From positions 112,431 through 176,430 of IMG/VR virus record IMGVR_UViG_3300042474_001151: a DNA stretch of 64,000 nucleotides; one strand, written 5' to 3'. Position 1 is the first letter of the stretch. The number at the start of each line of letters is the position of its first letter. This document shows, in pieces, positions 21,522 through 64,000 of this stretch. Below the pieces are notes generated by a model, which was given only the letters and a program-made list of their open reading frames with translations, was not told the DNA's origin and ran no database searches. A program made the position numbers and the translations under genes. The DNA is from a virus (Duplodnaviria > Heunggongvirae > Uroviricota > Caudoviricetes).

Positions 21522-21551
21522 CTACACAATTCAAATAAATCCATATATATT

Positions 21552-40593: not shown

Positions 40594-40971
40594 ATGTTAG
40601 AGAACATCAGTCCCTACGTTTATCCCGGTATTAAAAATAACGAGGAGTATAAAAAATTAAGAAGGTTTAAAAGGGATAGAATTACAAAAGAGGAAATACT
40701 TGATATAGTTGCTAAGAATTGCTGCGTCACTGCCTCCCAAATACTATCAAGAGTTAGAGATAGAGAAGTAATCGACGCCAGATTTATTTTTGTTGCGGTT
40801 ATGAAAAGAGAGTTTGGTCACACCTTAAAACACATCGGTAAAATTTTAAACAGAGACCACACAACTATCATTCATTCATTGGAAACATTTGCCGATAGAT
40901 ACAAACAGTATGATGAATATAGAGAAGTTGCAGATGGGGTATTCGAAGAAATCAAATCAAAAATAGAGTAA
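40594..40971 (+). CDS. DnaA C-terminal (domain IV) HTH-like protein
   Basis: ARFIFVAVMKREFGHTLKHIGKILNRDHTTIIHS matches Bac_DnaA_C. Confidence 0.6.
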   Translation: MLENISPYVYPGIKNNEEYKKLRRFKRDRITKEEILDIVAKNCCVTASQILSRVRDREVIDARFIFVAVMKREFGHTLKHIGKILNRDHTTIIHSLETFADRYKQYDEYREVADGVFEEIKSKIE

Positions 40972-49144: not shown

Positions 49145-49250
49145 TATGGGAACAATATTTCCTGTCATGATATCATTTACAATTGTAATAGGATTGACTA
49201 TTATTGTAATGATAATCGACCACATCACAAAAAAGAGATAAAAAAATTAT

Positions 49251-49937: not shown

Positions 49938-50260
49938 TGATTAAAAGAAAGAAACCCTTTGCAAAGATTGTAAAGGAATGGAATGAGGCATCCACCATGG
50001 AAGTATGGGAAGGAGTAAGGGATAACTTTATATTTGGATTCCTTGGTGCAACCATTGTGGTATTCATCGCAACTAGAGCCGACCTCATGGTATTATTTGG
50101 ATATCTGATATACTATTTCTTCATGGGGAGGATTGTCAATAGACCAAAATACGTCACGGACTTAGGTAAACTCATAGTGTTCCCCATCCCATCAGCACTT
50201 GGTGCATTCGCAGGATATAAGTTCTCGTACATTCTACAAGAGTTAACCCAACGTATATGA
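49937..50260 (+). CDS. Small membrane protein
   Basis: Two TM helices. Confidence 0.4.
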   Translation: MIKRKKPFAKIVKEWNEASTMEVWEGVRDNFIFGFLGATIVVFIATRADLMVLFGYLIYYFFMGRIVNRPKYVTDLGKLIVFPIPSALGAFAGYKFSYILQELTQRI

Positions 50261-50838
50261 AGATATGTATAATATCATCCATAGGTAGATCTGGAACAAC
50301 CTCACTATTTGATATGATGAGTTTATGTCTACCAAGATACTACACATGTTTAAATGAACCATTCGGTCGATTTCAAAGAGGGCATGAGATGAATCTTATT
50401 GAAAACGCCCCCAATGTTCTTGTAAAGGAGTTATTAAATAATACGGTTAACCATAAGGTTTTCCCATATGATTGGGTGTATCAGACCTTTGATAAGGTTA
50501 TTGTGATGGATAGAAGAAATAAGTGGGAACAGGCGGAGAGTCACGCAGCACATTCATATAAAGGGGATAACTTTAAAAGTTGGCACAATAGAAGGGAATA
50601 CGACTTAACAAACATACCCACGGAGTATATTAAGGCATTAGCAGACCAATCGGAGGATTTAATGCAATATCATAGGGGTAAGATTTACTATTACGAGGAT
50701 GTGTTTATGGAACATAACTTGGATTTGTTAATGGAGATTATGAATTCTGTGGGGATAACAGAAATACCCAATCAAATACTAAAGGATTATTTCTATAGTC
50801 CCAAGAAGAAGGTAAGAATAGTAAAGACCCTAATTTAA
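50257..50838 (+). CDS. Sulfotransferase-like protein
   Basis: IGRSGTTSL resembles the PAPS-binding [KR]SGTT motif. Confidence 0.5.
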   Translation: MKICIISSIGRSGTTSLFDMMSLCLPRYYTCLNEPFGRFQRGHEMNLIENAPNVLVKELLNNTVNHKVFPYDWVYQTFDKVIVMDRRNKWEQAESHAAHSYKGDNFKSWHNRREYDLTNIPTEYIKALADQSEDLMQYHRGKIYYYEDVFMEHNLDLLMEIMNSVGITEIPNQILKDYFYSPKKKVRIVKTLI

Positions 50839-50934: not shown

Positions 50935-51195
50935 ATGAGAAGAAAGAAACCATTCATGGATGATATCCATAAGACCACACCTGTAACCATCACCTATAAG
51001 TTCTATAATGACACGGTGATTATGAAGAGAGACGTATATGATTTAACAATTAGGGACCTAATGGAGTTAAATCGGTCCATGGTGGTGAATGTCTTTGATG
51101 AACAACTCTATCAGGAGTATATTATTCAATTAGCAGGGGAGTTAACAAAGAAAAAGAATCCAATTAAGAACTTTATTGAAAGAATATTAAGATAA
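50935..51195 (+). CDS. Hypothetical protein
   Basis: ORF only. Confidence 0.45.
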   Translation: MRRKKPFMDDIHKTTPVTITYKFYNDTVIMKRDVYDLTIRDLMELNRSMVVNVFDEQLYQEYIIQLAGELTKKKNPIKNFIERILR

Positions 51196-51435
51196 GTTTG
51201 GAATTGTAATAAAGATATCTTATCTTTGTAAAAGAAATTAGTTCATTGACATTATTGGAAATATTATTTCATCTTCTTAATAGAAGATGGTGCCAGTTGT
51301 TTGGCACATAGTGAATTCTGAATAAACAGAATGTGGATTTATCCGTGGAGATTAATTTCTCACTCACTCAATACCTTTTATTTTTTAAAAATATTGTTCA
51401 CAACTCATTGTAACATAGAAGGTTGTATATGGATA

Positions 51436-51724
51436 GGTTGTGAATACCATTACTTTGAAAGGTTTATACAACAGAGTGACTGTCTAAATGACTACGACCC
51501 GGTTGTGAATACCCCTACTTTAAAAGGTATATACAACCGGTATAGCTCTCATGTCATTAATGATTTGGTTGTGAATACCATTACTTTGAAAGGTTTATAC
51601 AACAAACGATTGAAAGGTATATACAACCACCACATAAATGAAGATATATACAACATCCCATTCCATACTTTACATATTAAGGTATAAACAACGAATTGGT
51701 TATTAAAAGGTAATATACAACACG
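51436..51724 (+). repeat. Array of three 38-bp imperfect-palindromic direct repeats (GGTTGTGAATACCATTACTTTGAAAGGTTTATACAACA) with 27/28-bp spacers, then four decaying partial copies
   Basis: Copy 1 (51436-73) and copy 3 (51567-604) are identical. Copy 2 (51501-38) has five mismatches. The truncated copies keep AAAGGT[AT]TATACAAC at 51611, 51643, 51677 and 51705. The track ORF 51331..51687 is an artefact of reading through the repeats. Confidence 0.85.
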
Positions 51725-51775
51725 AAGTCTCACGACTTAAAGATTATTATTTCCAATAATATAAACAAAATAACC

Positions 51776-53143
51776 ATGTCCATTAAAACAAGGAAGATTA
51801 AATTGATTGCGGTTGGTGAAACTGCAAAGGATAGAACAAAGGTCTACAACTACATTAAGAAGGTTGCAGATGATTTGACCCAAGTGGGAAATGAGGTTAT
51901 AAGACTTCATGTGTGCAATCAATATGAAATTGACAGGTTAAAGGGTACAAATAATATTTCCAAGGGTGATGCAATTAAGATACTACAAGATTCACTTGGT
52001 ACATCCATAAGGAATTCGGGGTATCAACTACTAACAAAATTCCCATATATATCTTCTCAAGTAAGGACATGTTTCAATTCTGTTATATATAAGACCATAA
52101 GTGATAACTTCTATGATATCCTTAAAGGGAAAGTATCCATTCCATCATTTAGAAAATCTAATCTATCCATTCCATTTTCAGCCAATAATGATAAAGAAAC
52201 TGGTATAACGAACGCAATATACGCCGAGGGAGATAGATACTACATACAATTCCCATTATCGGGGGAAGAAAGAAAGATACATAAAAAAGTTGAATTATCC
52301 TTATTCTTCGGAAAAGATAGAAGTAATAATAGAATTATTGTAGATAGAATACTCAATAGTGAATATAAACTATGTGATAGTAACTTCAAAATAGAAGATA
52401 ATGATTTATATCTATTGATTACCTATAAACAACCAGATAGTATTAAACCCGAAATGGATGTTAATAAGGTAATGGGTATAGACTTAGGTATTAATAGACC
52501 CGTATCCATTTATATTTCCAATGAAAAACATCAACCACGACAGATTAATATAGGATTAAAGATACAACATGAAAGGATGAAATTCTATAAACATAGAAAA
52601 TCCCTACAGGAATCTTTAAAGTATTCTAAAGGTGGTCACGGTAGAAATAGAAAGTTGAAGTCTTTGGAAGATTTAAGAGATAAGGAAAAGAATTGGAGTC
52701 AATTAATAAATCATACTATCTCTCGAGAAGTTATCAGGATTGCTAACGAGTATAATGTTGGTGTTATCCATATGGAAGATTTAACAGGAATAACAACTAA
52801 CTCTAAGGATTACTTCATGAAGAGTTGGGCATACTACCAACTACAAACTTATATAGTATATAAAGCAAAAGAACTTGGGATAACCATATTATGGGTAGAC
52901 CCTAAGAATACTTCTAATACCTGTCCCACTTGTAAGGTTTCTGAACCATTGAATAGAAACGATAAAGATAAAACAAAATTCAGATGTATTAATTTGAATT
53001 GTAAGGACTTTGATATGGATAGAGATGCTGATATTGTAGGAGCATTTAATATAACACATACCTTAGGATTAGATGTAAAGTCTAATAGTAAAGAAGGTAG
53101 AATGAAAAAAGGTAAGGAGAAAAAATTTATGGAACAAGTATAA
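51776..53143 (+). CDS. tnpB: TnpB-like RNA-guided RuvC nuclease (IS200/IS605 OrfB/Cas12-like). No tnpA is nearby.
   Basis: RuvC-I MGIDLGINRP, RuvC-II VIHMEDLTGI, RuvC-III DMDRDADIVGAFNI, and zinc finger CPTC...FRCINLNC. Confidence 0.85.
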   Translation: MSIKTRKIKLIAVGETAKDRTKVYNYIKKVADDLTQVGNEVIRLHVCNQYEIDRLKGTNNISKGDAIKILQDSLGTSIRNSGYQLLTKFPYISSQVRTCFNSVIYKTISDNFYDILKGKVSIPSFRKSNLSIPFSANNDKETGITNAIYAEGDRYYIQFPLSGEERKIHKKVELSLFFGKDRSNNRIIVDRILNSEYKLCDSNFKIEDNDLYLLITYKQPDSIKPEMDVNKVMGIDLGINRPVSIYISNEKHQPRQINIGLKIQHERMKFYKHRKSLQESLKYSKGGHGRNRKLKSLEDLRDKEKNWSQLINHTISREVIRIANEYNVGVIHMEDLTGITTNSKDYFMKSWAYYQLQTYIVYKAKELGITILWVDPKNTSNTCPTCKVSEPLNRNDKDKTKFRCINLNCKDFDMDRDADIVGAFNITHTLGLDVKSNSKEGRMKKGKEKKFMEQV

Positions 53144-54018
53144 TATGTTCACTAATCTCTACCGTTCACGGAACGTGAACATAGGTATTTTGTGAACACT
53201 TTTACCCTGAAGGGAGGAGACGAGAGTCTCCGACCGTACAATTACCCCCTATAAAATTACCCCTCAGAACCCCTCCATAGGGGTTTTATTTTACCCCGAA
53301 TTTTTTCCTGTTTATACCACTAAAAACCCCACTTTTTCCTGTCTGTTTTATCGTGATCAATTAATATATCTAAAACTATCTTTTTCTATCCCATATTTGG
53401 GTTCTAGTATAATTTATCCACAATTCCCCACTTTCTCCCACTTACTAGGAATATACCCTGGGATTGACCCGTGAGCGAATCACAGACCATTTTATTTTTT
53501 CTACCAGAATATACCCCTAATATCATTATATTATTACGGTCGGACTCTTCGAGTCCTCCCTTCAGGATGTCATACAAGTGTCTTAGTATAACCCTTTATA
53601 TATTATATTAATCTGTCATACATTAGGTTCCACGTGGAACCCTGAAGGGGGACCGAAGGTCCCCCGTATAATGAAACATTCGTAATACGGGATGAAGGGG
53701 ACCGAAGGTCCCCGAGTATACTTATAATACTTTTATACGGTCCTGATGTGATACGTCTATAATCCCTGAACCGTAATACAAACATTACTGGGGTGAAGTA
53801 GAAAATGGTTTGCCAAACAACATTAACATTACTGGGGAGACCAATATTGTTTGGCAGATTATACGGGGACCTTCGGTCCCCTTCAGGAGAATCTTAGAAT
53901 AATCCTATGGAAATTAAAAAAACCCTTAGGGATTTTCCGAAGGGTTCTTAGTATAGTACAATATATGTCTTACAAGGAAAGGATGAAGGGGGACCGAAGG
54001 TCCCCCGTAAGTAATACT
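53144..54018. repeat. GC-rich structured non-coding region with nested palindromic repeats. A TnpB-associated ncRNA/right end or a MITE-like insertion is possible.
   Basis: Four hairpin units (GGGGGACC-GAAG-GGTCCCCC) at 53647-65, 53697-713, 53865-81 (inverted) and 53988-54006. Perfect palindrome GGTTCCACGTGGAACC at 53639. Imperfect 34-bp inverted repeats at 53205..53238 and 53535..53566. A 26-nt partial copy of the upstream array repeat at 53185-53210. AACATTACTGGGG motifs at 53784 and 53824. Confidence 0.8.
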
Positions 54019-54903
54019 CTATGTCCATTTAAAAATAAAGTTGAACTTATCTAAGTTACTTGAAAAACGAACAGGAACTAAATCATTTGATTTAAGTATG
54101 TATTTTATTCTTTCTGTTAATAGTGTTTCTAATAGTTCTTTTTTAGGTACTGCATAATCTTCAGAAAGTTTTGGGTACTCTATATAGATTGGCATAAAAT
54201 CGAAGTCTACTTCCCCAGTAATCTTGTTGTGGCTTCTTGCATCACATTTGAAATTAAGTTTAACATTTTTGGGGAATTTATAATATACCTTGATTTGTTT
54301 TAATTCACCATCATCTCCCATACTCGTATTGATTTCATCTGGTATTGTAAAGGTTCCCTCCTCGACGAAGTCAAGATGAACCTGAAGGTTATGTGGAGTA
54401 TTCTTTTGGGATTGGAGTTGTCTCAGACCTCTATTAATTCTTTCCAAGGTGGTGTCGTCGAGTTCCATTACAGATCTAAATCCCACGGGGTCCTTAAGAA
54501 ACGTCATCAGAGTCTTTACTTTACGAACTTCTTTTGTCCATTGAAGTATCTCCACGGGTAATACAGTGTCCATTGCACTGTTTAAGTTAAATCCAATGAA
54601 TTCATTCATTCCCCCAGTAAATAATAGGTCACTGATCCTCACCGTGGTTTCACCCATCTCATTACTATTCCCATCCATGTACTCGTCATACATGGGCTTG
54701 AACTTCTCCGCGATTTCGGTCATCAACTTGAATATTATATCTGGTTGGACCTGAGTCTCACGTATTACGATGTTCAAGTAAGCACCAAATGTACTGAAAG
54801 TTTCAGGTAATGTATAATAAATCTCACCGTTTATTGTGTTCAACGGACCCCTCAGAGACTTTACGAATCTCTCGAAATCTGATTTGTCTAATATTTTTCC
54901 CAT
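54019..54903 (-). CDS. Hypothetical protein
   Basis: 294-aa ORF. A hairpin plus T-run on the minus strand at about 53915-53950 lies downstream. Confidence 0.5.
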   Translation of the reverse strand: MGKILDKSDFERFVKSLRGPLNTINGEIYYTLPETFSTFGAYLNIVIRETQVQPDIIFKLMTEIAEKFKPMYDEYMDGNSNEMGETTVRISDLLFTGGMNEFIGFNLNSAMDTVLPVEILQWTKEVRKVKTLMTFLKDPVGFRSVMELDDTTLERINRGLRQLQSQKNTPHNLQVHLDFVEEGTFTIPDEINTSMGDDGELKQIKVYYKFPKNVKLNFKCDARSHNKITGEVDFDFMPIYIEYPKLSEDYAVPKKELLETLLTERIKYILKSNDLVPVRFSSNLDKFNFIFKWT

Positions 54904-54915
54904 AGATATAAATAT

Positions 54916-54944
54916 AAAAAAAAAGGTTCCATGGTGGTGGAACC
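54916..54944 (-). terminator. Intrinsic terminator (minus strand)
   Basis: GGTTCCA-CCACCA-TGGAACC hairpin followed by T9 on the minus strand. Confidence 0.55.
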
Positions 54945-54969
54945 TCTTAGTAATACATGTGTAATAAGA

Positions 54970-55149
54970 CTATCGTCCCATTAACTCGTTACGGAACTGT
55001 ACGGCCTTTCTCTTACTAGAGAAATTCTTAGAGTACTTAGTACCATTAACACTTACACGTACACGGTAAGATGAACCATCATGATAGATGTTGTCGGCGA
55101 CAGGAACATACGTAGTTACTGTGGTGCGACGGGATGTTGTTTTTTTCAT
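54970..55149 (-). CDS. Possible 59-aa AP2-like DNA-binding domain protein
   Basis: SSYRVRVSVNGTKYSKNFSSKRKAVQFRNE resembles the AP2/integrase-arm DNA-binding fold. Below the track size cutoff. Confidence 0.35.
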   Translation of the reverse strand: MKKTTSRRTTVTTYVPVADNIYHDGSSYRVRVSVNGTKYSKNFSSKRKAVQFRNELMGR

Positions 55150-55419
55150 TTGCGACTATTTTAAGTTTATATATAAAATATAACAAATAATATCCAAATA
55201 AAAAAATCCTGTCAAAAAAATATTTTATCCCAGTAATGTTCCGAGTCCCTGATCAGGTCCCACTGTTGAGATATCTATCTCCCCACTTCTTGGTCATATA
55301 GGCATCATACCTATGTACCTTGTTCGGGTTGAACAGGAATATCACGAAGTAGTAATCCCACTTCCACTCTAAATCTTTTAAAAACTTCTTCATATGATGT
55401 TGTTTATTCCCCAGTAATG

Positions 55420-55686
55420 TTATCCCATCTTCTCCTTCCTGAGGATGTCGGTCAGAAGATTTTTGTGATTTTGGAGGATTACACCGTGCTGTTTCTTAAG
55501 AGCTTCGTCCAAAGACATTCTTTTGTGTGTAATCCTCCAATTGATTCTGTCGGTCGACTCCCATCGTTCCCAATGTTTACCACTAGGTGATAATTGAATT
55601 CTACTGTGAATCTTTTTCATTTGCTTTTTATTTGATAATTCCGCAAAGGTACGGTGTTTAAGGGTTAATAACAAACCCTTAAACAA
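55420..55686 (-). CDS. Hypothetical basic protein
   Basis: ORF only. Its stop overlaps a CCCCAGTAATGTT motif. Confidence 0.4.
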   Translation of the reverse strand: MFKGLLLTLKHRTFAELSNKKQMKKIHSRIQLSPSGKHWERWESTDRINWRITHKRMSLDEALKKQHGVILQNHKNLLTDILRKEKMG

Positions 55687-56245
55687 ATTCTTCAGTTTTA
55701 ATCATATTGAAGTCAATTGACTTCAGTTTGAATATTAAGTAATCGATAGCTATTCCCACTATCTTTCCATTGTGCTTAGCCACAAGAAGTCGGTAGGAAC
55801 CATCTCCATAACCTGAAGACGATACTACCCCAGTATTATATGAACCCCACTGTTGGCTTGACAAGGTTAATCTGCACATCTTCTCATACCACTTATCTCC
55901 CTCACCCTCACACGGTAACATAAAGTCCATCTTAGGTGCTGTTATCTCATCAGCAATGGAATCATTCCTATAGGACTCCATATCAAATATCCCACACTGA
56001 CCTGAGTCAACACCGATATCTGCTGCGGTAACTGTTCTCCAAGACAAATCGTCCTCCACATAATCCTTGTGGACAGCAACAAGTGCTGCACATCTTGTAC
56101 CCCAACCACCGGTCTCATCCGATTTGAATGCTGTGGAGGAATACTCACCAGGTAATACATCTGTCAACTTATGCTGACACCAGGTAGGGACAGTGTAACA
56201 AGGGTCCGATACCATAACTTCCGAGCCTAAATAAATTTTTTCCAT
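55679..56245 (-). CDS. Hypothetical protein
   Basis: 188-aa ORF, GC-richer than its surroundings. Confidence 0.5.
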   Translation of the reverse strand: MEKIYLGSEVMVSDPCYTVPTWCQHKLTDVLPGEYSSTAFKSDETGGWGTRCAALVAVHKDYVEDDLSWRTVTAADIGVDSGQCGIFDMESYRNDSIADEITAPKMDFMLPCEGEGDKWYEKMCRLTLSSQQWGSYNTGVVSSSGYGDGSYRLLVAKHNGKIVGIAIDYLIFKLKSIDFNMIKTEEFV

Positions 56246-56246
56246 T

Positions 56247-56570
56247 TTAAATTACATTTATTGTGAATGATTCTGTTTCGATTTGTCTGTGTAAATAAAC
56301 TAAGTGTTCCATTGTAAGGTCGTTATAACCTAAGTCGTGGTAACCATCTCCTGTAATACCTTTGGTGATTAACTCACCTGTGGTTCCACATATTCCAATA
56401 ACAACTACTTTAACTTGGTAGTCGTCGTCGAAGTTTTGGGTAAACCACACTGAGAATGGGCTGGTTAATTCTAATTCAAAATCATCCCCTCCGTTAAGTT
56501 TAACGGTTCTGTGGACGATATCTCGGTGAATACTATCACGGAGTTTTAATAATTCTTGACCATAGTTCAT
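56247..56570 (-). CDS. Hypothetical protein
   Basis: ORF preceded by a class-A-like promoter. Confidence 0.45.
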   Translation of the reverse strand: MNYGQELLKLRDSIHRDIVHRTVKLNGGDDFELELTSPFSVWFTQNFDDDYQVKVVVIGICGTTGELITKGITGDGYHDLGYNDLTMEHLVYLHRQIETESFTINVI

Positions 56571-56594
56571 ATGATTAATAGTTTTAGTGTAATA

Positions 56595-56626
56595 CGAAAT
56601 TAGATATTATTTTCGAATATTCCAAA
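56595..56626 (-). promoter_or_regulatory. Probable class A promoter (minus strand)
   Basis: Minus strand reads TTTGGAATATTCG, 20 nt, then TAATTTCG (imperfect -7 box), upstream of the ATG at 56570. Confidence 0.4.
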
Positions 56627-57109
56627 TTATCCTAGAATATTTTTTAGAACTTTAACATTCTCGTTAATCTCAAGGTCCATCACTTTAAGTAACTTCTCCT
56701 TAGCTAACTCCATAAACTCTACACTGTTACCCAGTAAATCAATGTCCGTCCCGTGCACATCCGTCTTCCCGACGATGACCCTGATGTCCTTAGTGCCTTT
56801 ACCCTCTCTATAGAATAGAGCTCGAGCGTAGATGTACTCACGAACCAAAGACAGTTTGATTTCATCAGCAACCGATTCCTTAGAACGGAGTTGCATAATG
56901 ATTTCTTCTAACTTGGCTAACATCTCGAAGTTGGTCTTCATCATACGGATGCTGTTCTTATACTGATTACAGTACTTCACCAGCTCATCAGTGTGAGGAA
57001 TACTTAAATCGATGTCCACATTAAGGAACCGATCGTACGAACTAATTCTATCTCGGGTACCCACTATCTCGGTGAATACTCCTCCCGTTAAACGATTTTC
57101 TCTACCCAT
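56627..57109 (-). CDS. Hypothetical protein
   Basis: ORF only. Confidence 0.45.
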   Translation of the reverse strand: MGRENRLTGGVFTEIVGTRDRISSYDRFLNVDIDLSIPHTDELVKYCNQYKNSIRMMKTNFEMLAKLEEIIMQLRSKESVADEIKLSLVREYIYARALFYREGKGTKDIRVIVGKTDVHGTDIDLLGNSVEFMELAKEKLLKVMDLEINENVKVLKNILG

Positions 57110-57333
57110 TTTATTTTTGTTTTTAATTTGTTTAAAATCCCAGTAAACTTGTCCCCATCCTGGCTCACCTCAGGTGCGAACTCATATCTCGTGTTCATTG
57201 TACTTCCCAAATAACCAGTAAAGTATTTGGTTGGTTCAACATATTGGCTTGATACTCTATATCTTTCCACCCACTCATTAAATGATAATGGGGTTTGGAA
57301 TGTGCTCATCTTACATTTCAGTTTCTTTTCCAT
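57088..57333 (-). CDS. Hypothetical protein
   Basis: ORF only. Confidence 0.4.
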   Translation of the reverse strand: MEKKLKCKMSTFQTPLSFNEWVERYRVSSQYVEPTKYFTGYLGSTMNTRYEFAPEVSQDGDKFTGILNKLKTKIKWVEKIV

Positions 57334-57970
57334 ATATCTCTTTTACTTCGTTAAAAATTTCTTCTAATGTTTTAAGGTCTTCCTCCCCAGTAATAAAATG
57401 GAACATTTCCTTCACCGACTCGAAGGTTACATCTTCATCACTCTCGAACAAATAGTCAATGTCGCCGTCGATAGATTCAAAGAAGTTCTCCTTGTCGAAA
57501 AGATATCTACCCTCATTGTATGAATAATCTTCTTCGGTTAATCCATTCTCATTGTCAAAATAAGATTTACCACAGAAGTCACAACCTGGTTCTTCATAAT
57601 ATAACTCACACTTCACATTGAATAACCTACCCAAGTGTTGAATGAAGTTTATTGGTGGTGACCAAGCTGAATCGAACGACATTGTTATTGATTCGTCATC
57701 ATAAGTGATATTAGCTTCGTTGTATGACACATCCCACTTACAACCCCAGTAATTAATGTTGGCATCGTACCATCCTCCGTGTTCGTATTCATTTAACTCA
57801 ATAGATTTGTCACGACCAACAAGAGCCATAAAAATGCCAGGGGATGTGTTATCCTTACTCTCGATATCTTCGAGATAAAATTTAATTCTGTCCAAGTTTT
57901 CGTTATCACCTGTAATAGTAAGGTGATTGTTGCACCAATTTGGCATAGTTGTATGATTTATGTTTAACAA
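57311..57970 (-). CDS. Acidic hypothetical protein
   Basis: ORF only. Confidence 0.5.
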   Translation of the reverse strand: MLNINHTTMPNWCNNHLTITGDNENLDRIKFYLEDIESKDNTSPGIFMALVGRDKSIELNEYEHGGWYDANINYWGCKWDVSYNEANITYDDESITMSFDSAWSPPINFIQHLGRLFNVKCELYYEEPGCDFCGKSYFDNENGLTEEDYSYNEGRYLFDKENFFESIDGDIDYLFESDEDVTFESVKEMFHFITGEEDLKTLEEIFNEVKEIYGKETEM

Positions 57971-58020
57971 AGATATAACAGGGATATCATTATTCCAAAT
58001 AATATCCCCGTTATTTTATT

Positions 58021-58503
58021 TTACCAAGAAGCTCTGTATTCAAAGTCACCAGAGTACAATCCGTGTTCTTTGGATTGTTCGTGTTCTTCTAATAACTCCT
58101 CAATGATTTTGATAGTTGAGTTTACATCTTCTTTGTAATACTCATCAATTTCATCACCACCGAAAAAGAAACCCTGTACTGGTGGAAGAAGTTCTTTAGC
58201 CTTATCAAAGTTGGAACTAACTTCTTTTAGTGTTTCAAATAACTCTTTCAGCTTGTCCTCATCAACATTGATGTTTTGACATTCATCAATACCACCACCA
58301 CAATTCTCAACGAACCATCCGTGAAGTGCATTGAACTTTCTCCAATACGCCACCTGTTCGGTGATGTAACAAATACGATTTGGTTTAATGTCGTTACGAA
58401 CTACACCATTCTTTTTAACTTCGATTTGGTGTTGTTGTTCAGGTGGGTTGTGTTCCCAATTTTGTACATAAGTTCTTTTGTACAGATACATGTCTAGTCC
58501 CAT
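58021..58503 (-). CDS. Hypothetical protein
   Basis: ORF only. Confidence 0.5.
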   Translation of the reverse strand: MGLDMYLYKRTYVQNWEHNPPEQQHQIEVKKNGVVRNDIKPNRICYITEQVAYWRKFNALHGWFVENCGGGIDECQNINVDEDKLKELFETLKEVSSNFDKAKELLPPVQGFFFGGDEIDEYYKEDVNSTIKIIEELLEEHEQSKEHGLYSGDFEYRASW

Positions 58504-58566
58504 GATTTTTTAGTTTAAGTGTTAATTAATAATGTAAAGGTATTACAATAATTTTATTATACCAAA

Positions 58567-58890
58567 TTATTTTATGAAAAGTTTACTATCGATTGTAAAT
58601 AATTCTTTGTACTCACTTCCGTCAGCATTCTGTCCGTTTAAATTCCAGAATGGCAATACTCTTGGATTGTATTTTAAATGTGCGGTAGTTTCAGGAACAA
58701 AATCTTCTGTAAGGATTTCTATTTCTTTACAAAGAACATATGCACAAACGACTTTGGTGGTTTCCCCAGTAAATATTTTCTGCGCTGCTGTCCTGTTGTT
58801 TTTCAGAACGCAATCAGTTAGTATTAACTGAACTTCAGCTGGGTGATAATATTTCACCCAGCCGTTGTTATATTCAATTTTCCATTTCAT
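58567..58890 (-). CDS. Hypothetical protein (start trimmed to MKWKIEYNNGW)
   Basis: The track ORF 58567..59130 overlaps the upstream gene by 205 nt. The internal Met removes that overlap. Confidence 0.4.
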   Translation of the reverse strand: MKWKIEYNNGWVKYYHPAEVQLILTDCVLKNNRTAAQKIFTGETTKVVCAYVLCKEIEILTEDFVPETTAHLKYNPRVLPFWNLNGQNADGSEYKELFTIDSKLFIK

Positions 58891-58924
58891 ATAGTTCTCT
58901 CCCTTTCCGAGATTAAACCTAACT

Positions 58925-59377
58925 TTATGCTTTTTCAACTTCTTCCTTTTTATATTTTTTAACAAATTGGGATGGAGTACCACGAAACAATTCAGTTTTA
59001 TTTCCGTCGTTCTCATAACAAACAAACTCAATGGAGTAATCTTCTTTAACGATAACATCATAAAGATAATCTTCCCAAGAATTTCCACGACTTGACAAAG
59101 ATTGTACATAGGTGTTTCCTGTTTCGCCACCTTTTAATTTCCAAATGAGTTGAGCGGCTAAACAACCAGCTCCGTTGAATACTAATTTCTTTTCGTTGGC
59201 ACCATACCCATTAACGACTTTTCCTGTTGATAACCATTCAGCGGTTTCAAGTGGATGACCTGTTGGGTATCCATCATACTGACGATAGATTAAACAGATT
59301 TCATTCTGTTTTACTTTTTTTACTTTTTTACCTGTTGAGTATTCCTCAATGATGCGGTAAGTTGAACGAGTTCCCAT
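58925..59377 (-). CDS. Hypothetical protein (start trimmed to MGTRSTYRII)
   Basis: The conserved class B promoter lies at 59411..59441. The longer track ORF would begin inside the promoter/repeat region. Confidence 0.45.
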   Translation of the reverse strand: MGTRSTYRIIEEYSTGKKVKKVKQNEICLIYRQYDGYPTGHPLETAEWLSTGKVVNGYGANEKKLVFNGAGCLAAQLIWKLKGGETGNTYVQSLSSRGNSWEDYLYDVIVKEDYSIEFVCYENDGNKTELFRGTPSQFVKKYKKEEVEKA

Positions 59378-59410
59378 AATAGATTTTTTTTTGTGATTAA
59401 TATTATAGTA

Positions 59411-59441
59411 CAAAGATAATACTTTTTTATTACCTGCCAAA
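59411..59441 (-). promoter_or_regulatory. Bacteroidetes-type promoter, class B (AAAATAAATTTGG-N19-TATCTTTG)
   Basis: Minus strand reads AAAATAAATTTGGCAGG..., 19 nt, then TATCTTTG, 33 nt upstream of the ATG at 59377. Confidence 0.6.
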
Positions 59442-59482
59442 TTTATTTTCAACTTTTTTAAAAAAATATTTGCCGGCGTCAT

Positions 59483-59612
59483 GCATAATCCTAAACATTA
59501 CTGGGGTGTAATACGGATCTGATCGGCGCACGATCTGCAAAACTGGCTAAACATTACTGGGATTTACCCCAGTAAACTTTCGCCTCAGGCCTGTGCAGGT
59601 ACAGTGCACAGC
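59483..59612. repeat. GC-rich intergenic repeat element R1 (AACATTACTGGGGTGTAATAC; hairpin TTACTGGG-ATTTAC-CCCAGTAA; CAGTGCACAG)
   Basis: Motif at 59494-59516. Perfect 8-bp-stem hairpin at 59554-59575. GATCGGCGCACGATC palindrome. Homologous to R2-R5. Confidence 0.8.
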
Positions 59613-59639
59613 AAAAAAAATCCCCACCTTTCGGTGAGG
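59613..59639 (-). terminator. Intrinsic terminator (minus strand) for 59648..60448
   Basis: Minus strand reads CCTCACC-GAAA-GGTGGGG followed by T8. Confidence 0.75.
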
Positions 59640-59647
59640 ACATTAAA

Positions 59648-60448
59648 TTAAAGTTGTATGACAAACTTATTCTTTGTTAACTTATTTCGAACTCGTTTAT
59701 ATTTTAGTCCGACAATTACATTCTTTTTATCTTTATACCTCATATCGTATAAATCCCCATCGATTACTTTCCTATCCCAAAATGTTTTAGGTACTTTATT
59801 AAAAACAACCGCCACCCTTACATTCTTATTTAACATTGAGTGACACTCATTTAAATTGTGACCGCTATAAGAGAAAGTTAAATCGTAGTTCTTATATTTT
59901 TTAAGTAGTTCGATTCTTTTAGGAACCTTTGTATAATCGTAGAATTGGATGTGTTGAAAGTATTGTAAAATATTAACGGGTTTATCATTTACATGAATAT
60001 AAAATGATTCGGGCGTTATATCTGATGTGTTATTCAAACGAACCGAAAATTTATAACCTAACTTCTTAGCTTTTAATTCTGTGGACTTAATTTCATCAAA
60101 CATCCAATTAACAAAAAATTCCCTGTGTTCAAAAAACAATTTAGTTTTTGCAATTCGTGAACGATTAATTTTATCGTCCTCCATGTTCATCGTGTTCATC
60201 CCTGATTCATTCAAACATAACTTTGTACATTCTTTTGTTCTCATAGGGCAAACCTCGTAACCGCTCATTTTTGCAGGAGCTAAGTACAAACTATATGTTA
60301 ATTCATCGTACTTGAATGCCTTCTGATGTTTCGTCGTCATATTAACGGAACCTAAATAAGATATCCCTGTTAATCTTTTTGCTTGAGCCTTAGTAGTGTA
60401 AATCATTTGTTTATTTTTTAGTGTAGTGAGTAATTGTTGTTTCTTCAT
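59648..60448 (-). CDS. Hypothetical protein with Cys cluster (CPMRTKECTKLC)
   Basis: 266-aa ORF. Confidence 0.5.
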   Translation of the reverse strand: MKKQQLLTTLKNKQMIYTTKAQAKRLTGISYLGSVNMTTKHQKAFKYDELTYSLYLAPAKMSGYEVCPMRTKECTKLCLNESGMNTMNMEDDKINRSRIAKTKLFFEHREFFVNWMFDEIKSTELKAKKLGYKFSVRLNNTSDITPESFYIHVNDKPVNILQYFQHIQFYDYTKVPKRIELLKKYKNYDLTFSYSGHNLNECHSMLNKNVRVAVVFNKVPKTFWDRKVIDGDLYDMRYKDKKNVIVGLKYKRVRNKLTKNKFVIQL

Positions 60449-60596
60449 CCACCGACTCTGTCACCAAATCAAAATTGTTTTTTTTACACAATTTTTCCAA
60501 TGCAGGTAGGCACGCATCGTAGGTTTCTTCATCGTCGAAGATTGCTACCAGTTCAGCATATTTGCCATTATCCAATTCGAAATAAACTTTTACCAT
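60411..60596 (-). CDS. Small acidic hypothetical protein
   Basis: ORF overlapping the start of the downstream gene. Class B promoter upstream. Confidence 0.4.
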   Translation of the reverse strand: MVKVYFELDNGKYAELVAIFDDEETYDACLPALEKLCKKNNFDLVTESVDEETTITHYTKK

Positions 60597-60618
60597 AGTG
60601 TTGTTTTTTTAGTGTACA

Positions 60619-60650
60619 CAAATATACAACTAATACTTTTATAATCCAAA
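60619..60650 (-). promoter_or_regulatory. Bacteroidetes-type promoter, class B
   Basis: Minus strand reads AAAATAAATTTGGATTATAAAAG..., 20 nt, then TATATTTG, 23 nt upstream of the ATG at 60596. Confidence 0.6.
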
Positions 60651-60820
60651 TTTATTTTTAAATATTTTTTTGAGTTAGCGCATGCGCGCAGCACTGGTCT
60701 AACTTTACTGGGGTAATACAACAGCAGATTACGCTGCAGATCATAGCTCCAATAATTACTGGGATTCCCCAGTAAACTTCAGCGCTGGTCCGGGCTGTGT
60801 TTGCGCTGAAAGTAATACGC
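60651..60820. repeat. GC-rich intergenic repeat element R2
   Basis: GCGCATGCGCGC palindrome. AACTTTACTGGGGTAATACAAC at 60701-22. Hairpin TTACTGGG-ATTC-CCCAGTAA at 60756-75. TTCAGCGCTG. The track ORF 60658..60852 is an artefact of this element. Confidence 0.8.
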
Positions 60821-60850
60821 AAAAAAAAGGGTGAACATTTCTGTCCACCC
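60821..60850 (-). terminator. Intrinsic terminator (minus strand) for 60872..61186
   Basis: Minus strand reads GGGUGGACA-GAAA-UGUUCACCC (with one G-U pair) followed by U8. Confidence 0.7.
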
Positions 60851-60871
60851 AATCGTTCACACTAATAAACA

Positions 60872-61186
60872 CTAATCACTAATTCGTTTTTCTGTTCTAA
60901 TACACTCAGCTTCCCACTGCTCACATAGAAGTAATACATCTTCCAACACATTCTCATTCAACTCCCAATAACTTTCTTCGTAGGTGTCGATAGCGTCAGA
61001 ACTACTTGAACGAGGTTCGTACACATTTACTTCGATATAATCTTCTGTGAAATATTCACCAAGCCCAACATAGTTACCTAATGTTCCGATAAGAATACTA
61101 TTCTCACCTTCTAATTCTCCAATACTAAAACATCCGTTGACTTTTAGTATGTCTGTAATACGATTAATGATTTCTGAATTTTCCAT
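60872..61186 (-). CDS. Acidic hypothetical protein
   Basis: ORF only. Confidence 0.45.
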   Translation of the reverse strand: MENSEIINRITDILKVNGCFSIGELEGENSILIGTLGNYVGLGEYFTEDYIEVNVYEPRSSSSDAIDTYEESYWELNENVLEDVLLLCEQWEAECIRTEKRISD

Positions 61187-61188
61187 TT

Positions 61189-61500
61189 TTAAATTGATTT
61201 AGTATTATCCCAAATTATATTACCTTCCTCGTCATACAACTCCTCCGTAGGTTCTCCACCATTTTCTTCGGGTATTAAACCTTCAAGAGTTTCGTCAATA
61301 TGTTCCCACGGCAATTCCGTGTTATCTCCTCTTTCACGGAACTCGATTGCCAATTTCTTAGCCTCCTCCAATGAGTTAGCCTCTATTTCAAATTCTGTAC
61401 GATACCAAGTCGTAACCTTTGTGTCTAAATGAAAATTAAATGTTGTTAGGGTCTGTTCCATTTTCCATTGATTTTTTAATTGATATAATAAGTAATACAA
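61189..61500 (-). CDS. Acidic hypothetical protein
   Basis: ORF only. Confidence 0.45.
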   Translation of the reverse strand: MYYLLYQLKNQWKMEQTLTTFNFHLDTKVTTWYRTEFEIEANSLEEAKKLAIEFRERGDNTELPWEHIDETLEGLIPEENGGEPTEELYDEEGNIIWDNTKSI

Positions 61501-61572
61501 CCATTACCGAAAACAATACAATAACTCCGAATCCTAAAAGTAGGCAATATAAGACATTCATAGTTTTAATTT

Positions 61573-61770
61573 TTAAAGTTCACGAATATACATATAATCT
61601 TCTAATTCTTCCAAAGGAATTCTTCCGTTGTTTGAGGAATAATATCCTTGTCTTCGATATCGTTCTTTCCACTTGTCAAATGCCTCAAATGCTTTTTCCT
61701 TTGAGGTGTAGTAAGGTCTATCGAATTCAATCGTAAACCCGTCGGGTGATAATACTTCGTACCTTGTCAT
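61573..61770 (-). CDS. Small hypothetical protein
   Basis: ORF only. Confidence 0.4.
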   Translation of the reverse strand: MTRYEVLSPDGFTIEFDRPYYTSKEKAFEAFDKWKERYRRQGYYSSNNGRIPLEELEDYMYIREL

Positions 61771-61771
61771 A

Positions 61772-61969
61772 TTAATCTTGTTTAATTAAAGTTTGAGAAT
61801 ACTCTTGTGTAATAAGTGTGTCCATGTGTTGTGAACCACTATAACGATTTACTTCTCGTTGGGTTACAACTTGATGAGAACCGACGGGAATAAACCCTTC
61901 GTTAATGTACTTGTTTACTTTTTCGGTTAATCCTTCGGGGGATGAACTTGTTAATACTTTGTACTCCAT
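61772..61969 (-). CDS. DUF1737-like small protein (start trimmed to MEYKVLTS)
   Basis: MEYKVLTSSSPEGLTEKVNKYINEGFIPVG resembles the DUF1737 signature. The promoter at 61992..62023 fits this start. Confidence 0.45.
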   Translation of the reverse strand: MEYKVLTSSSPEGLTEKVNKYINEGFIPVGSHQVVTQREVNRYSGSQHMDTLITQEYSQTLIKQD

Positions 61970-61991
61970 ATCTTTTTGTTTTAGTGTAAGA

Positions 61992-62023
61992 CAAAGATAA
62001 AACAATAATATTATTTTACCAAA
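61992..62023 (-). promoter_or_regulatory. Bacteroidetes-type promoter, class B
   Basis: Minus strand reads AAAATAAATTTGGTAAAATAAT..., 20 nt, then TATCTTTG, 23 nt upstream of the ATG at 61969. Confidence 0.6.
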
Positions 62024-62294
62024 TTTATTTTGAAGAATTTTCTCCAGCCCGATCATCCCTAAACATTACTGGGTTGAATTGTTAGCCAGCGCAAATTTCC
62101 TGATCAGCGCGCGCAAATCTGGCTAATGTTTACTGGGGTAATACAAATAACTCATGGACCAGGCATTGTGCGCAGGTGAAAATTACTGGGATGTCCCCAG
62201 TAAAATTCAGCGCTGTTTCTATGCAGCTACAGTGCACAGGTAATACACCCAGTAAACTTGTGACCCATCGCACAGTGTGACGGGGTTCCCCAAA
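62024..62294. repeat. GC-rich intergenic repeat element R3 (the longest copy)
   Basis: AAACATTACTGGGTTG at 62061. TGTTTACTGGGGTAATACAAAT at 62127-48. Hairpin TTACTGGG-ATGT-CCCCAGTAA at 62183-203. TTCAGCGCTG, CTACAGTGCACAGG and GGGGTTCCCC. Confidence 0.8.
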
Positions 62295-62323
62295 CAAAAA
62301 ACCCCCGAACTAAAAGTCCGAGG
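62295..62323 (-). terminator. Intrinsic terminator (minus strand) for 62354..63214
   Basis: Minus strand reads CCCUCGGAC-UUUUA-GUUCGGGGG (two G-U pairs) followed by U6. Confidence 0.65.
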
Positions 62324-62353
62324 GTTTCACCAATATAATCTTTAACCTATGTC

Positions 62354-63214
62354 TTACACTAAATGTACAAGTTCCTTAAAGATTTGTCTTTCACGATTTC
62401 CGTAAGTTCCAAACATCTTATTTTCAGAATTGTCACCTTTACCCATACTATGAGTTGTGTATTTTGTTACACCACTAAATAAACCCCAAATGTTATCACC
62501 CTTTTCGTTAATCTCACCATTAAGGTCAACATAGAATCTACTTAATTTATTTTGTGTCACGGTAGATAATGAATCAACATCCTTAATATCAACATTCTTT
62601 TCGATATTGAATAACGATTTGATTACTCTATCCTTGATAATATCATCGAAACGAGTTTCACTCATTTTAACGATAGAACCGAACACATTCTTTTCTTCTT
62701 GTACTACACCCTCAATTTGTCGACAGATATCTTCTATCTTTAATTCCATATTCTTTGTATGACGTACCTTTGAATCTAAATCCTTGTACACACCAAAGAA
62801 CGTGTTTTGACAACTGATAGTTTTAGAACTAGGTCCGAACGATAATGAAGTCGAACCATCAAAAGAATTAATCCCAGTAACATAACCCTCGATTCTATCC
62901 GTCCCCAAAGTTAAGTCGTTTGATTTTAATTGAACGAATACTTTTCGTCCACCACCGAACAAACCACCTCTATGAACATCAAGTCCAGTTTGTTGGGATA
63001 CTTTGAATAATAGTTCCATCATTTGGTCATTCTGATATGGCACATAACCATTCGAGTGAATACCCAAGATTGTACTATCATCCTCACGAACGATACCAAT
63101 TTTATCAGGGATAATAATTCCTGACGAAGTTTGAAGTCCTTCGGTACGGACTTTCCAATTTAAACCAGTTCTATCCAAGAACTGATTAACCCGATTGTTT
63201 TCTACGATTTCCAT
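62354..63214 (-). CDS. DUF932-family phage/plasmid-associated protein
   Basis: YVTGINSFDGSTSLSFGPSSKTISCQNT resembles the DUF932 signature (NS.DGS...C.NT). Confidence 0.55.
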   Translation of the reverse strand: MEIVENNRVNQFLDRTGLNWKVRTEGLQTSSGIIIPDKIGIVREDDSTILGIHSNGYVPYQNDQMMELLFKVSQQTGLDVHRGGLFGGGRKVFVQLKSNDLTLGTDRIEGYVTGINSFDGSTSLSFGPSSKTISCQNTFFGVYKDLDSKVRHTKNMELKIEDICRQIEGVVQEEKNVFGSIVKMSETRFDDIIKDRVIKSLFNIEKNVDIKDVDSLSTVTQNKLSRFYVDLNGEINEKGDNIWGLFSGVTKYTTHSMGKGDNSENKMFGTYGNRERQIFKELVHLV

Positions 63215-63251
63215 CTGTTTAATTTTTATGGTTTAATAAATGATTGTATGA

Positions 63252-63283
63252 CAAAGATAAATTAATCTGGGATATAATCCAAA
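63252..63283 (-). promoter_or_regulatory. Bacteroidetes-type promoter, class B
   Basis: Minus strand reads AAAATAAATTTGGATTATATCCC..., 20 nt, then TATCTTTG, 38 nt upstream of the ATG at 63214. Confidence 0.6.
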
Positions 63284-63419
63284 TTTATTTTTAAGAAATA
63301 TTAATTATTTTTTTCCTCCTAATCCACCTGTGATCAGAGCTCCCAATATTACTGGGTAATACTTGACGATACCCCAGTAATTTTACGGGACGATCAGGTC
63401 GAGAAAAATTCTTGGACAT
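63284..63419. repeat. GC-rich intergenic repeat element R4
   Basis: TGATCAGAGCTCCC. AATATTACTGGGTAATACTTGACG at 63345-68 pairs with CCCCAGTAAT at 63372-81. Confidence 0.75.
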
Positions 63420-63445
63420 AAAAAAACCCCCGACAGAATCGGAGG
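63420..63445 (-). terminator. Intrinsic terminator (minus strand) for 63469..63789
   Basis: Minus strand reads CCUCCGA-UUCUG-UCGGGGG followed by U7. Confidence 0.7.
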
Positions 63446-63468
63446 TCTTATTAAAGTAGGTGGTTTTA

Positions 63469-63789
63469 TTACACCAACAAATCTTGTACTGAATGTTCGG
63501 AAGTTTTTTCATCCCACACATCATCATTCCAATCTTCACCGACTTGGGTACAAGTCTTGTAGAAAATTTCAACAACACCATTCTCGATGGTGACAACTCC
63601 TTCGGTTCTCTCGTTGATAGGAATCAAATCCTTTTCAACAAGAAACAAAAGTACGAGTTCGTACTCCAAAAATTGGTCGGTGTTCTCCGACTCAATGTAT
63701 TCAACTTGTCCTTGGAAATCCAAGGAGAACTCAAACTCCACATTAGAGTTTAGAGTTTTTTCGATTTGGGAAGTGAACAAAGTGTCCAT
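63469..63789 (-). CDS. Acidic hypothetical protein
   Basis: ORF only. The TATATTTG box lies about 35 nt upstream. Confidence 0.45.
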   Translation of the reverse strand: MDTLFTSQIEKTLNSNVEFEFSLDFQGQVEYIESENTDQFLEYELVLLFLVEKDLIPINERTEGVVTIENGVVEIFYKTCTQVGEDWNDDVWDEKTSEHSVQDLLV

Positions 63790-63894
63790 AGTGTGTAGGT
63801 CTATTGGTTAGTAGACAATACAAATATAAAAAAGAAATTCCGTTTTACAATACATTTATGAAAAATTATTTTACTTTTTTTCTGACCCTGGTAA

Positions 63895-64000
63895 TCCAAA
63901 TATATTACTGGGTAATACAAGAATTCCAGTTCGGGGACCTACTGGAAATTATTACTGGGATGTCAAGTTTTCAAATCAATAAACTTGACACATGTTGTAA
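63895..64000. repeat. GC-rich intergenic repeat element R5 (partial; runs off the window)
   Basis: ATATATTACTGGGTAATACAAGAATTCC at 63901-28. ATTATTACTGGGATG at 63948. GTCAAGTTT...AAACTTGAC hairpin. Confidence 0.7.

Follow-up and report, generated by a model that had tools for sequence, protein, structure and literature searches.

GC-rich intergenic modules with two oriented boxes mark a cassette array in an uncultured Bacteroidetes phage

The cassette array and its intergenic modules

The analyzed stretch of viral DNA (64,000 nt, referred to below as the window; positions 112,431 to 176,430 of the IMG/VR record IMGVR_UViG_3300042474_001151) ends in a region of small minus-strand genes separated by GC-rich intergenic elements, five of which (R1 to R5, at 59.5, 60.7, 62.1, 63.3 and 63.9 kb) had been proposed in an original prediction made without database searches. 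All five were found at those places, with the spans given in Table 1, and their high GC content was confirmed (36-49%, against 32.5% for the window). The elements mark a single array of approximately 19 kb in an uncultured Bacteroidetes phage, composed of co-oriented small promoter-gene-terminator cassettes, over which the family is repeated about 20 times. In relatives, the array starts at a divergent gene and ends at a convergent junction that corresponds to 53.2-54.0 kb of the window, while the element family runs for about 9 kb past the position of the window end.

No cultured relative was found by megablast and tblastn against cultured phages. The region is shared by metagenomic viral contigs at approximately 87-93% nucleotide identity (e.g., IMGVR_UViG_3300044846_003114, 131 kb, and IMGVR_UViG_3300042301_002383), and the array was common in metagenomes, several of them from lakes, on contigs ranging from a few kb to more than 300 kb, including some of 210-320 kb. 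The array genes were small and mostly without an assigned family; those that could be recognised were DUF932, GP88, DUF1281_C, SprT-like, DUF3846, DUF4241, SAM lyase and L5 gp82, a set that seems to recall the genes of plasmid leading regions and of anti-restriction. Two lineage-specific array proteins (211 and 222 aa) showed no informative domains, and only accessory genes were found in the 10 kb past the array start.

Hereafter, F denotes TTACTGGG, R its complement, and g the box that reads GTATTAC in the direction of the genes and GTAATAC on the plus strand. Followed in gene direction, a typical spacer starts with the T-run of the terminator, often with g immediately next to it, followed by GC-rich palindromic blocks. 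Its middle part holds a tight F/R hairpin with a 4-6 nt loop and then a second unit, in which g either abuts R (GTATTAC-CCCAGTAA) or lies between the arms (F-loop-g-R, as in R4), and the spacer ends with a variable GC-rich stretch, an A-rich tract and the promoter. The composition is mosaic, resembling that of bacterial interspersed mosaic elements (BIMEs).

The predicted position between an intrinsic terminator and a conserved host-type promoter was verified for R1 to R4, whose promoters are of the Bacteroidetes type (TTTG-N19-20-TAnnTTTG), while for R5 the window edge cuts off any upstream terminator and the promoter was assigned by visual inspection alone. The composite TTACTGGG[G]TAATAC, described as common to all five elements, was exact only in R2 and R3, with TTACTGGGTAATAC in R4 and R5 and a TG insertion in R1. 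Likewise, R1, R2 and R3 contain 8-bp hairpins whose loops measure 4-6 nt, whereas R4 has the same arms around a 16-nt loop that holds the GTATTAC box. Further copies of the motif do exist outside the elements, although the two reverse-complement positions had to be corrected (Table 1); the earlier reading had overlooked the eight copies of F located inside genes, as well as the independence and strand bias of the GTAATAC box.

Table 1. Elements, boxes and genes considered in this study, with the arm or box types of distant relatives (handles beginning with L).
Feature	Position in window	Strand	Content and context
R1	59483-59612	minus	GC-rich spacer module; terminator 59641-59620, promoter 59441-59411 (-33 starting at 59441); tight F-6 nt-R hairpin 59554-59575; g+R composite 59498-59514
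R2	60672-60828	minus	Terminator 60850-60829, promoter 60650-60619 (-33 starting at 60650); g box 60812-60818 directly after terminator T-run; tight F-4 nt-R hairpin 60756-60775; g+R composite 60705-60719
R3	62047-62297	minus	Longest element; terminator 62328-62298, promoter 62023-61992 (-33 starting at 62023); F+g 62240-62255; tight hairpin 62183-62203; g+R 62130-62144; lone R 62066-62073
R4	63310-63422	minus	Terminator 63449-63423, promoter 63283-63252 (-33 starting at 63283); single F-loop-R hairpin 63349-63380; g box 63356-63362 at 3' side of loop
R5	63880-64000	minus	Ends at window edge; g+R 63905-63918, further R 63952-63959
F box	55229-55236	minus	12 nt upstream of TTTG read as -33 of the 59-aa gene
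Further F box	55410-55417		
Single in-gene F boxes	54214-54221, 54613-54620, 56730-56737, 57139-57146, 57386-57393, 57745-57752, 58765-58772, 62873-62880	sense of minus-strand genes	
Single in-gene g boxes (starts)	54558, 56152, 56353, 58135, 60931, 61155, 61492	sense	7/7 conserved in L020
g box	56589-56595		Overlaps promoter start region
Distal array end	53682-54017		Minus strand; convergent non-coding junction; R copies 53785-53792 and 53829-53836 (plus reading); g at 53682, 53773, 54011
59-aa ORF	54970-55149	minus	Penultimate array gene; AP2-like ORF of the original prediction
125-aa DnaA-HTH-like ORF	40594-40968		Pfam Bac_DnaA_C, 3.6e-15
Arms, L030			TTACCGGG/CCCGGTAA
Arms, L024 and L026			TTGGTTGGC/GCCAACCAA
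Arms, L027			TTGATTGGC/GCCAATCAA
Arms, L032			TTGTGTGGC/GCCACACAA
Arms, L033			TTGTCTAGTTT and its complement
F box, L066			TTACTGGA
F box, L068			TTGTCTGGCA

Two boxes: strand, confinement and exchange between relatives

In the window, F was matched 27 times (1.77 matches expected), in all cases at 53785 or beyond, and GTAATAC was present in 21 copies (19 on the plus strand and 2 on the minus strand), all at 53682 or beyond. A check suggested along with the original prediction, whether copies are restricted to one genomic module, thus gave a clear answer, with F, R and g confined to 53.7-64.0 kb of the window. In the remaining 53 kb, GTATTAC was absent from both strands, against approximately 9 copies expected under a third-order Markov model, and ACTGGG occurred once against 6-13 expected; none of the three boxes was found in 10.6 kb past the array start in a relative (L063). 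The g box is an independent 7-mer, separate from F.

In addition to the spacers, single boxes were located within genes. All eight in-gene copies of F are on the sense strand, spread over the three codon phases, and seven of them are intact in the relative L020, the 54214 site being aligned with a gap. When both boxes are considered, 14 of 15 in-gene sites are intact in L020 despite flanks that are only 57-95% identical, a survival that we estimate from the flank identities at approximately 5 of 15 by chance. The same orientation was observed over 10 loci, where in-gene g was found 90 times in sense and 20 times in antisense (33, 29 and 28 in the three codon phases). Since they are oriented, conserved and present in all codon phases, the boxes are nucleic-acid signals rather than by-products of coding, and the occupation of all three phases rules out a codon artefact. 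When read on the plus strand, both boxes (at 59498-59514 and elsewhere) coincide with the conserved 16S rRNA strings GGTAATAC (530 loop) and ATTACTGGGCG, a similarity that was judged coincidental since other lineages have a different F.

The DUF932 gene (44-66% protein identity) served as the anchor for distant relatives. In these genomes the order terminator-module-promoter-gene was kept, the arms had changed (Table 1), and GTATTAC or GTATGAC was kept on the sense strand, often in the loop beside the 3' arm. In L065, a flanking gene 94% identical to that of L020 is nevertheless accompanied by the arms TTGTTTGGC/GCCAATCAA, so that the arm type moves with the array and not with the backbone. 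Judging from these comparisons, F is specific to each lineage and g common to distant lineages. Other repeats were also observed in the spacers, namely 9-nt periodic runs of (A/G)(A/T)GT(A/T)CCNN (e.g., AAGTACCCG ATGTACCGC ATGTGCCGA; L011 5500-5585, L026 3040-3095), which are conserved between lineages of unlike arms. A related lineage without modules (L037 1-10000) carries approximately 25-30 near-identical promoters (AAATAAATTTGGTTGTAAACTTTTTTA...TACATTTG) in 10 kb, its terminators abutting the promoters directly.

Genomes of the same lineage differ by whole cassettes, two segments of L020 (9327-9765 and 11045-11794) being absent from the window. R3 matches two separate elements around one extra gene cassette in the relative L020/L021, and corresponds to a fusion of both with its junction inside GTATTACCCCAGTAA, while the R4 junction falls in the repeated CTGATC-to-F segment. 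As deduced from these alignments, the elements are the breakpoints or crossover points at which relatives gain, lose and swap cassettes, and homologous recombination between the repeats can explain the junctions.

Such plasticity could also be expected of selfish repeats resembling miniature inverted-repeat transposable elements (MITEs), repetitive extragenic palindromes (REPs) or palindrome-associated transposable elements (PATEs) that settle in tolerant spacers, or of passive recombination substrates like the promoter-early stem-loops (PeSLs) of T4, without any regulatory role. The BIME-like mosaic, the variation in copy number and arrangement between genomes of approximately 90% identity, the swapping of arm type between backbones and the TnpB-family gene adjoining the array are all in line with this explanation, and inverted arms are indeed present. 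However, we regard it as improbable, given that single in-gene boxes are conserved and oriented, that the boxes are avoided in the remaining genome and that their spacing to promoters is phased or fixed (see below). Moreover, comparisons of four to six genomes revealed neither a target-site duplication nor a precise empty site. No transposase, and in particular no Y1 TnpA/RAYT, was detected in the scanned ORFs (open reading frames of the window at 14-48 kb and most of the larger array ORFs, the segments 1-14 and 48-51.7 kb lying outside the scan; arrays of seven lineages; 10 kb upstream), the only related gene being a TnpB-like ORF. The MITE-like proliferation contemplated in the original prediction is disfavoured on the same grounds, since phased spacing and single conserved in-gene boxes are unexpected of selfish insertions.

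The modules are not a host repeat either. In a scan of GTDB genomes (one per species), the hairpin was limited to two small contigs of one Bacteroidetes metagenome-assembled genome from Lake Erken and five singletons. This near-absence led us to reject a host repeat, a Chi site and a decoy of a CRISPR repeat, Chi being also opposed by the avoidance of the boxes elsewhere in the phage.

Box geometry, candidate binding proteins and neighbouring genes

The distance between the last R and the -33 TTTG was recorded in 20 sequence-dissimilar spacers of the same lineage (9, 31, 35, 36, 36, 42, 45, 45, 54, 55, 55, 56 in four cases, 57, 57, 65, 89 and 119 nt). Distances clustered at 35-36, 45, 54-57 and 65 nt, i.e., in steps of approximately 10 nt (Rayleigh test, period of 10.5-11 bp, p ~3e-4). 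At five L066 promoters, a lone F precedes the -33 by 12-13 nt, and a spacing of 12 nt to a TTTG read as the -33 was found in the window upstream of the 59-aa gene (Table 1), whose promoter did not match the promoter pattern. Other lineages showed spacings of 15 or 26 nt (L025), 20-21 or 31 nt (L027) and, for a different box, 31 nt (L031). The latter box is also used in an iteron-like run of six or seven direct repeats of GCCAAAGAATATTCAGA with a 46-nt period (L031 13491-13800).

Some lineages, including the one analyzed here, duplicate F in inverted orientation. Pairing of the arms seems dispensable, because L066 holds 16 copies of F and no R, and the non-complementary arm positions are systematic (T:C or T:T at arm position 4; CCCAGGAA variants). 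In at least one case in the window, at 43470, a terminator abuts a host-type promoter without any module. Helical phasing, the fixed distance from F to the -33 and the occurrence of F without an inverted partner favour a primary role of the boxes as sites where proteins bind double-stranded DNA, tied to promoter geometry.

Two ORFs had been named as candidate binding proteins. The first, the 59-aa AP2-like ORF, is represented by 233 protein clusters with 67-97% identity, against 30-65% for neighbouring proteins between lineages. Its AlphaFold2 model (predicted local distance difference test score of 81) consists of four beta-strands and a C-terminal helix, in agreement with the three- to four-stranded antiparallel sheet on a C-terminal helix that characterises AP2 or integrase-arm DNA-binding domains, and a fold of that type is therefore predicted. 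A Pfam scan gave no AP2 (PF00847) or Arm-DNA-bind match at E values up to 1, and a faint one to dsRBD (E = 0.037). The gene was always the last or the penultimate one in the examined arrays, and in all 13 arrays holding it GTAT(T/G)AC was more frequent in sense than in antisense (27 vs. 2 in L073, 22 vs. 7 in L066, 18 vs. 6 in the window, and 12 vs. 6 in L074, the smallest margin). Conversely, two arrays that end without the 59-aa gene (L035 and L037) showed neither GTAT(T/G)AC enrichment nor spacer modules. In addition, two lineages with the protein variant DGTSY...(I/V)(T/K)NGTK(N/I)S prefer GTATGAC (14 vs. 4-5). Based on this co-occurrence and on the tentative covariation, the 59-aa protein is the best candidate to bind g, and its earlier nomination thus gains support from predicted fold, synteny at the distal end and co-occurrence with the motif.

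The second candidate, the 125-aa DnaA-HTH-like ORF, fared worse. When its translation is read against E. coli DnaA, the residues that contact the DnaA box (DHTT..H) appear intact, and canonical DnaA boxes (TGTGGATAA) lie just upstream of several array promoters in relatives (spacers of L032 and L027; L011 1531-1560). The protein is thus more likely to bind these boxes, and unlikely to bind F.

Considering motif statistics, orientation, conservation, phasing, synteny, co-occurrence and the predicted fold together, we tentatively propose, with a probability of roughly 0.4, that the elements are cis-regulatory modules in which F and g act as protein-binding sites on double-stranded DNA that switch the whole array. 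Among the candidates of the original prediction, an array of binding sites for a phage regulator is accordingly the favoured one, on account of the phasing, the fixed spacing of lone F, the oriented and conserved in-gene boxes, and the avoidance elsewhere. The proposal also draws on the retention of g in distant relatives with another F, on cassette gains and losses that end inside the elements, and on the discrete positions of g in promoter cores (-26, -12 and -1 from the end of the -7 box), the other g boxes related to promoters being 80 nt or more upstream of the -7 box. Under this proposal, the array would be transcribed by the host RNA polymerase, as most cassette promoters match the Bacteroidetes host consensus. 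A distal F-dependent promoter would drive the 59-aa AP2-fold protein, which would occupy the oriented g boxes over the array, and a putative F-binding factor encoded with the array would occupy F and R. As they accumulate, these proteins would bind upstream of promoters, in some promoter cores, after terminators and inside genes, and the whole array would be switched, most plausibly by polar shut-off in the way of mycobacteriophage stoperators; where F is located 12 nt from the -33, its role may rather be the activation of delayed promoters. With both boxes avoided elsewhere, the remaining genome would escape array control.

Several observations weigh against this proposal. The phasing is partly driven by the 54-57 nt class, and the spacers may share ancestry. 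The F/R loops vary in length (4-6 nt and 8-40 nt), which is easier to reconcile with a hairpin or cruciform than with a rigid dimer operator, and on the sense strand G:T pairings outnumber A:C pairings (31 vs. 11, in a noisy tally), which hints at pairing within one strand. Most g boxes do not lie over promoters but occur inside genes or some 100 nt ahead of the -7 box, at 70-75 nt from the -33. The g box also occurs in terminator loops, so that it is present in RNA. With regard to the 59-aa protein, the two negative controls are related to each other, and the covariation between protein and motif rests on two lineages. Finally, early expression of the array is assumed from its gene content and promoter type.

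In one alternative, folded single-stranded or cruciform hairpins would be recognised by a strand-specific enzyme (an HUH nickase, a folded-DNA recombinase or a primase), the GTATT/AC site in the loop being the point of nicking or crossover for an integron-like exchange of cassettes. The stems are lineage specific yet always complementary (approximately seven arm types, stems of 8-10 bp, invariably F before R), the loops vary in length, and g is placed at the 3' side of the loop beside the 3' arm, an arrangement that may be likened to the Rep origins of circular Rep-encoding single-stranded (CRESS) DNA viruses, with NANTATTAC in the loop. The excess of G:T over A:C on the sense strand points in the same direction, avoidance of the boxes on both strands elsewhere suits a cleavage site, and the cassette indel junctions lie inside GTATTACCCCAGTAA in a hyperplastic array. 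Still, this explanation, although the likeliest of the alternatives, is unlikely in itself: the scanned ORFs yielded no HUH enzyme, recombinase or transposase, some lineages have F only in unpaired form (16 vs. 0 in L066), neither the fixed, helically phased distance to the -33 nor the systematic arm mismatches would be expected, and ordinary homologous recombination between repeats of 15-35 bp explains the junctions equally well. A more specific version, in which the F/R arms and the GTATT/AC loop constitute an integron-like system that shuffles anti-defence genes by means of an enzyme not yet recognised, possibly guided by the AP2/integrase-arm-like protein, has a small chance of being correct.

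A role at the level of RNA was also considered. GUAUUAC, UUACUGGG and the read-through hairpins could be targets of a phage endoribonuclease or RNA-binding protein, timing mRNA decay or processing in the manner of T4 RegB. The sense orientation of in-gene boxes in all codon phases, the g boxes in the loops of intrinsic terminators, the preference for G:U-compatible mismatches and the dsRBD match of the 59-aa protein would all be compatible with such signals. We nevertheless consider them quite unlikely, as most elements lie between a strong terminator and the next promoter and should be poorly transcribed, the remaining genome avoids the boxes on its antisense strand as well, and both helical phasing and a fixed distance from F to the -33 are properties of DNA. 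A scan of 51000-64000 against Rfam 15 returned a single match, to SECIS_4, attributable to chance (E = 0.29). The idea of small-RNA genes included in the original prediction is not supported for that reason and because no promoter precedes the elements.

The least probable of the explanations weighed here is that the boxes serve a phage-encoded or virion RNA polymerase as promoters or initiation sites, either of the phiKZ type (TATATTAC) or comparable to N4 hairpins. N4 virion-polymerase hairpins have stems of 5-7 bp and loops of 3 nt, unlike the 8-10 bp stems and 4-40 nt loops observed here. TATTAC is common to the early promoter consensus of phiKZ and 201phi2-1 (PMC7058600, Table 2), and the boxes follow the direction of the genes, are avoided elsewhere and are conserved in lineages with contigs of 210-320 kb. 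However, a host-type promoter close to consensus is already present in most cassettes, the approximately 85 kb examined yielded no polymerase gene, g is not at a constant distance from the gene start and also occurs in terminator loops and in the middle of genes, and its context is GC-rich rather than AT-rich. A T7-class promoter is improbable too, as had been anticipated. Three further candidates were rejected: a crAss-like virion polymerase (phi14:2 early promoters lack a known motif), a MotA-like middle promoter (the in-gene F boxes are not followed by a -7 box), and a sigma-A promoter created by g (no TAnnTTT upstream of g).

If the proposed regulatory role holds, the two-box grammar and its avoidance signature would make it possible to delimit such arrays computationally in uncultured Bacteroidetes phages, and the tiny AP2-fold regulator and g would constitute a directly testable pair of regulator and site. 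The ready shuffling of cassettes in these regions would also be explained, and stand-alone AP2-type domains would gain a role in bacterial viruses.

Several features were observed next to the array or elsewhere in the window. A region with a CRISPR-like mini-array and a TnpB gene (51429-53225) lies beyond the distal end, the mini-array being directly upstream of a 455-aa TnpB/Cas12f-like ORF (51776-53143; Pfam OrfB_IS605 and Cas12f1-like_TNB). It consists of three 36-37-nt repeats (GGTTGTGAATACCATTACTTTGAAAGGTTTATACAAC) with a period of 65-66 nt, followed by degenerate copies, and a fourth repeat-like copy is located just downstream (53181-53225). The repeat starts with GTTG and ends with CAAC, which we take to be a likeness to type VI-B repeats, and neither the repeat nor two spacers had an exact match in IMG/VR. 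The adjacent convergent non-coding junction (53144-54020, 870 bp) contains four copies of the hairpin GGGGACC-GAAG-GGTCCCC with CTGAAGG/CCTTCAG flanks, forming long inverted repeats, with an inverted pair at 53206-53223 / 53549-53566, and also a DnaA box (TTATCCACA) near 53414 and a hairpin of the TTGTTTGGC type (53811-53856). Possible identities of the junction are bidirectional terminators, an origin, or a tracr or omega-RNA region. A large block of genes (1723-13319 and 48428-50838), four of them scanned against PHROGs, has on visual inspection the look of sugar-nucleotide and glycosyltransferase functions. The window also encodes a 383-aa thymidylate-synthase-like ORF (17557-18708), three DNA methyltransferase ORFs, NifU/IscA homologues and two PcfJ-like paralogues (19620-22970). 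This gene content suggests DNA or surface modification functions in a large phage genome.

Comparison with known systems

A search of the literature for the motif retrieved only primers, no described intergenic repeats were found for Flavobacterium phages, and in the libraries and papers searched no earlier description of the element family or of the 59-aa protein was apparent. The array can nonetheless be compared with several known systems, some of which resemble it in one of its boxes or hairpins only. CRESS-DNA virus and geminivirus Rep origins also combine a lineage-specific stem with a conserved ...TATTAC at the 3' side of the loop; here, in contrast, there are tens of copies in a double-stranded DNA phage, many g boxes are outside hairpins, and no Rep/HUH gene was found in the scanned ORFs. 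Integron attC sites have an R' core GTTRRRY with its inverse R'' and are served by the IntI integrase; GTATTAC and the arms do not match GTTRRRY on inspection, and no tyrosine recombinase was found in those ORFs. Promoters of the N4 virion RNA polymerase, the product of a giant gene, differ in stem and loop sizes, and the longest ORF of the window does not exceed 633 aa. The phiKZ early promoter, an AT-rich consensus immediately ahead of early genes in phages with split multisubunit polymerase genes, has only TATTAC in common with g, which is found in a GC-rich context and with host-type promoters, and no polymerase domains were found in the approximately 85 kb examined. As for AP2/ERF and integrase arm-type domains, the 59-aa ORF differs in being a stand-alone protein without a Pfam AP2 match.

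The stoperators of cluster A mycobacteriophages (L5 gp71) are 13-14 bp sites distributed genome-wide in a temperate phage and bound by the immunity repressor. They resemble the boxes described here in being many copies of a short asymmetric site oriented with transcription (19 vs. 2 for g in the window, 8/8 in sense for in-gene F, and 90 vs. 20 for g over 10 loci), in having a lineage-specific sequence that evolves with the regulator, and in the proposed polar block. On the other hand, the present system consists of two boxes of 7-9 bp confined to one array and often arranged as inverted pairs, with a 59-aa AP2-fold protein as the candidate binder.

A close parallel in terms of cassette organization is provided by the PeSLs of T4-type phages, composite terminator/promoter repeats flanking small non-essential genes (PMC2839356, PMC4122927). 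As in those phages, repeated terminator/promoter cassettes with host-type promoters (terminators and TTTG-N17-21-TAnnTTTG promoters flank the cassettes of R1 to R4) make up a hyperplastic region of small non-essential genes, and the indel and replacement junctions of close relatives fall in the repeats, mirroring PeSL-mediated shuffling. Terminator and promoter abut in the PeSL unit of approximately 50-60 bp, a system in which mini-circles are formed, whereas here they are separated by a GC-rich two-box module of 100-250 bp, the boxes are also present inside genes and avoided elsewhere, and phage group and promoter type are those of Bacteroidetes rather than of T4-like myoviruses. Operator or stoperator arrays and promoter-terminator shuffling cassettes are thus known kinds of systems, while their combination in this phage appears to be new: a grammar of one pan-lineage and one lineage-specific box, confined to a single hyperplastic accessory array and accompanied by an AP2-fold candidate regulator.

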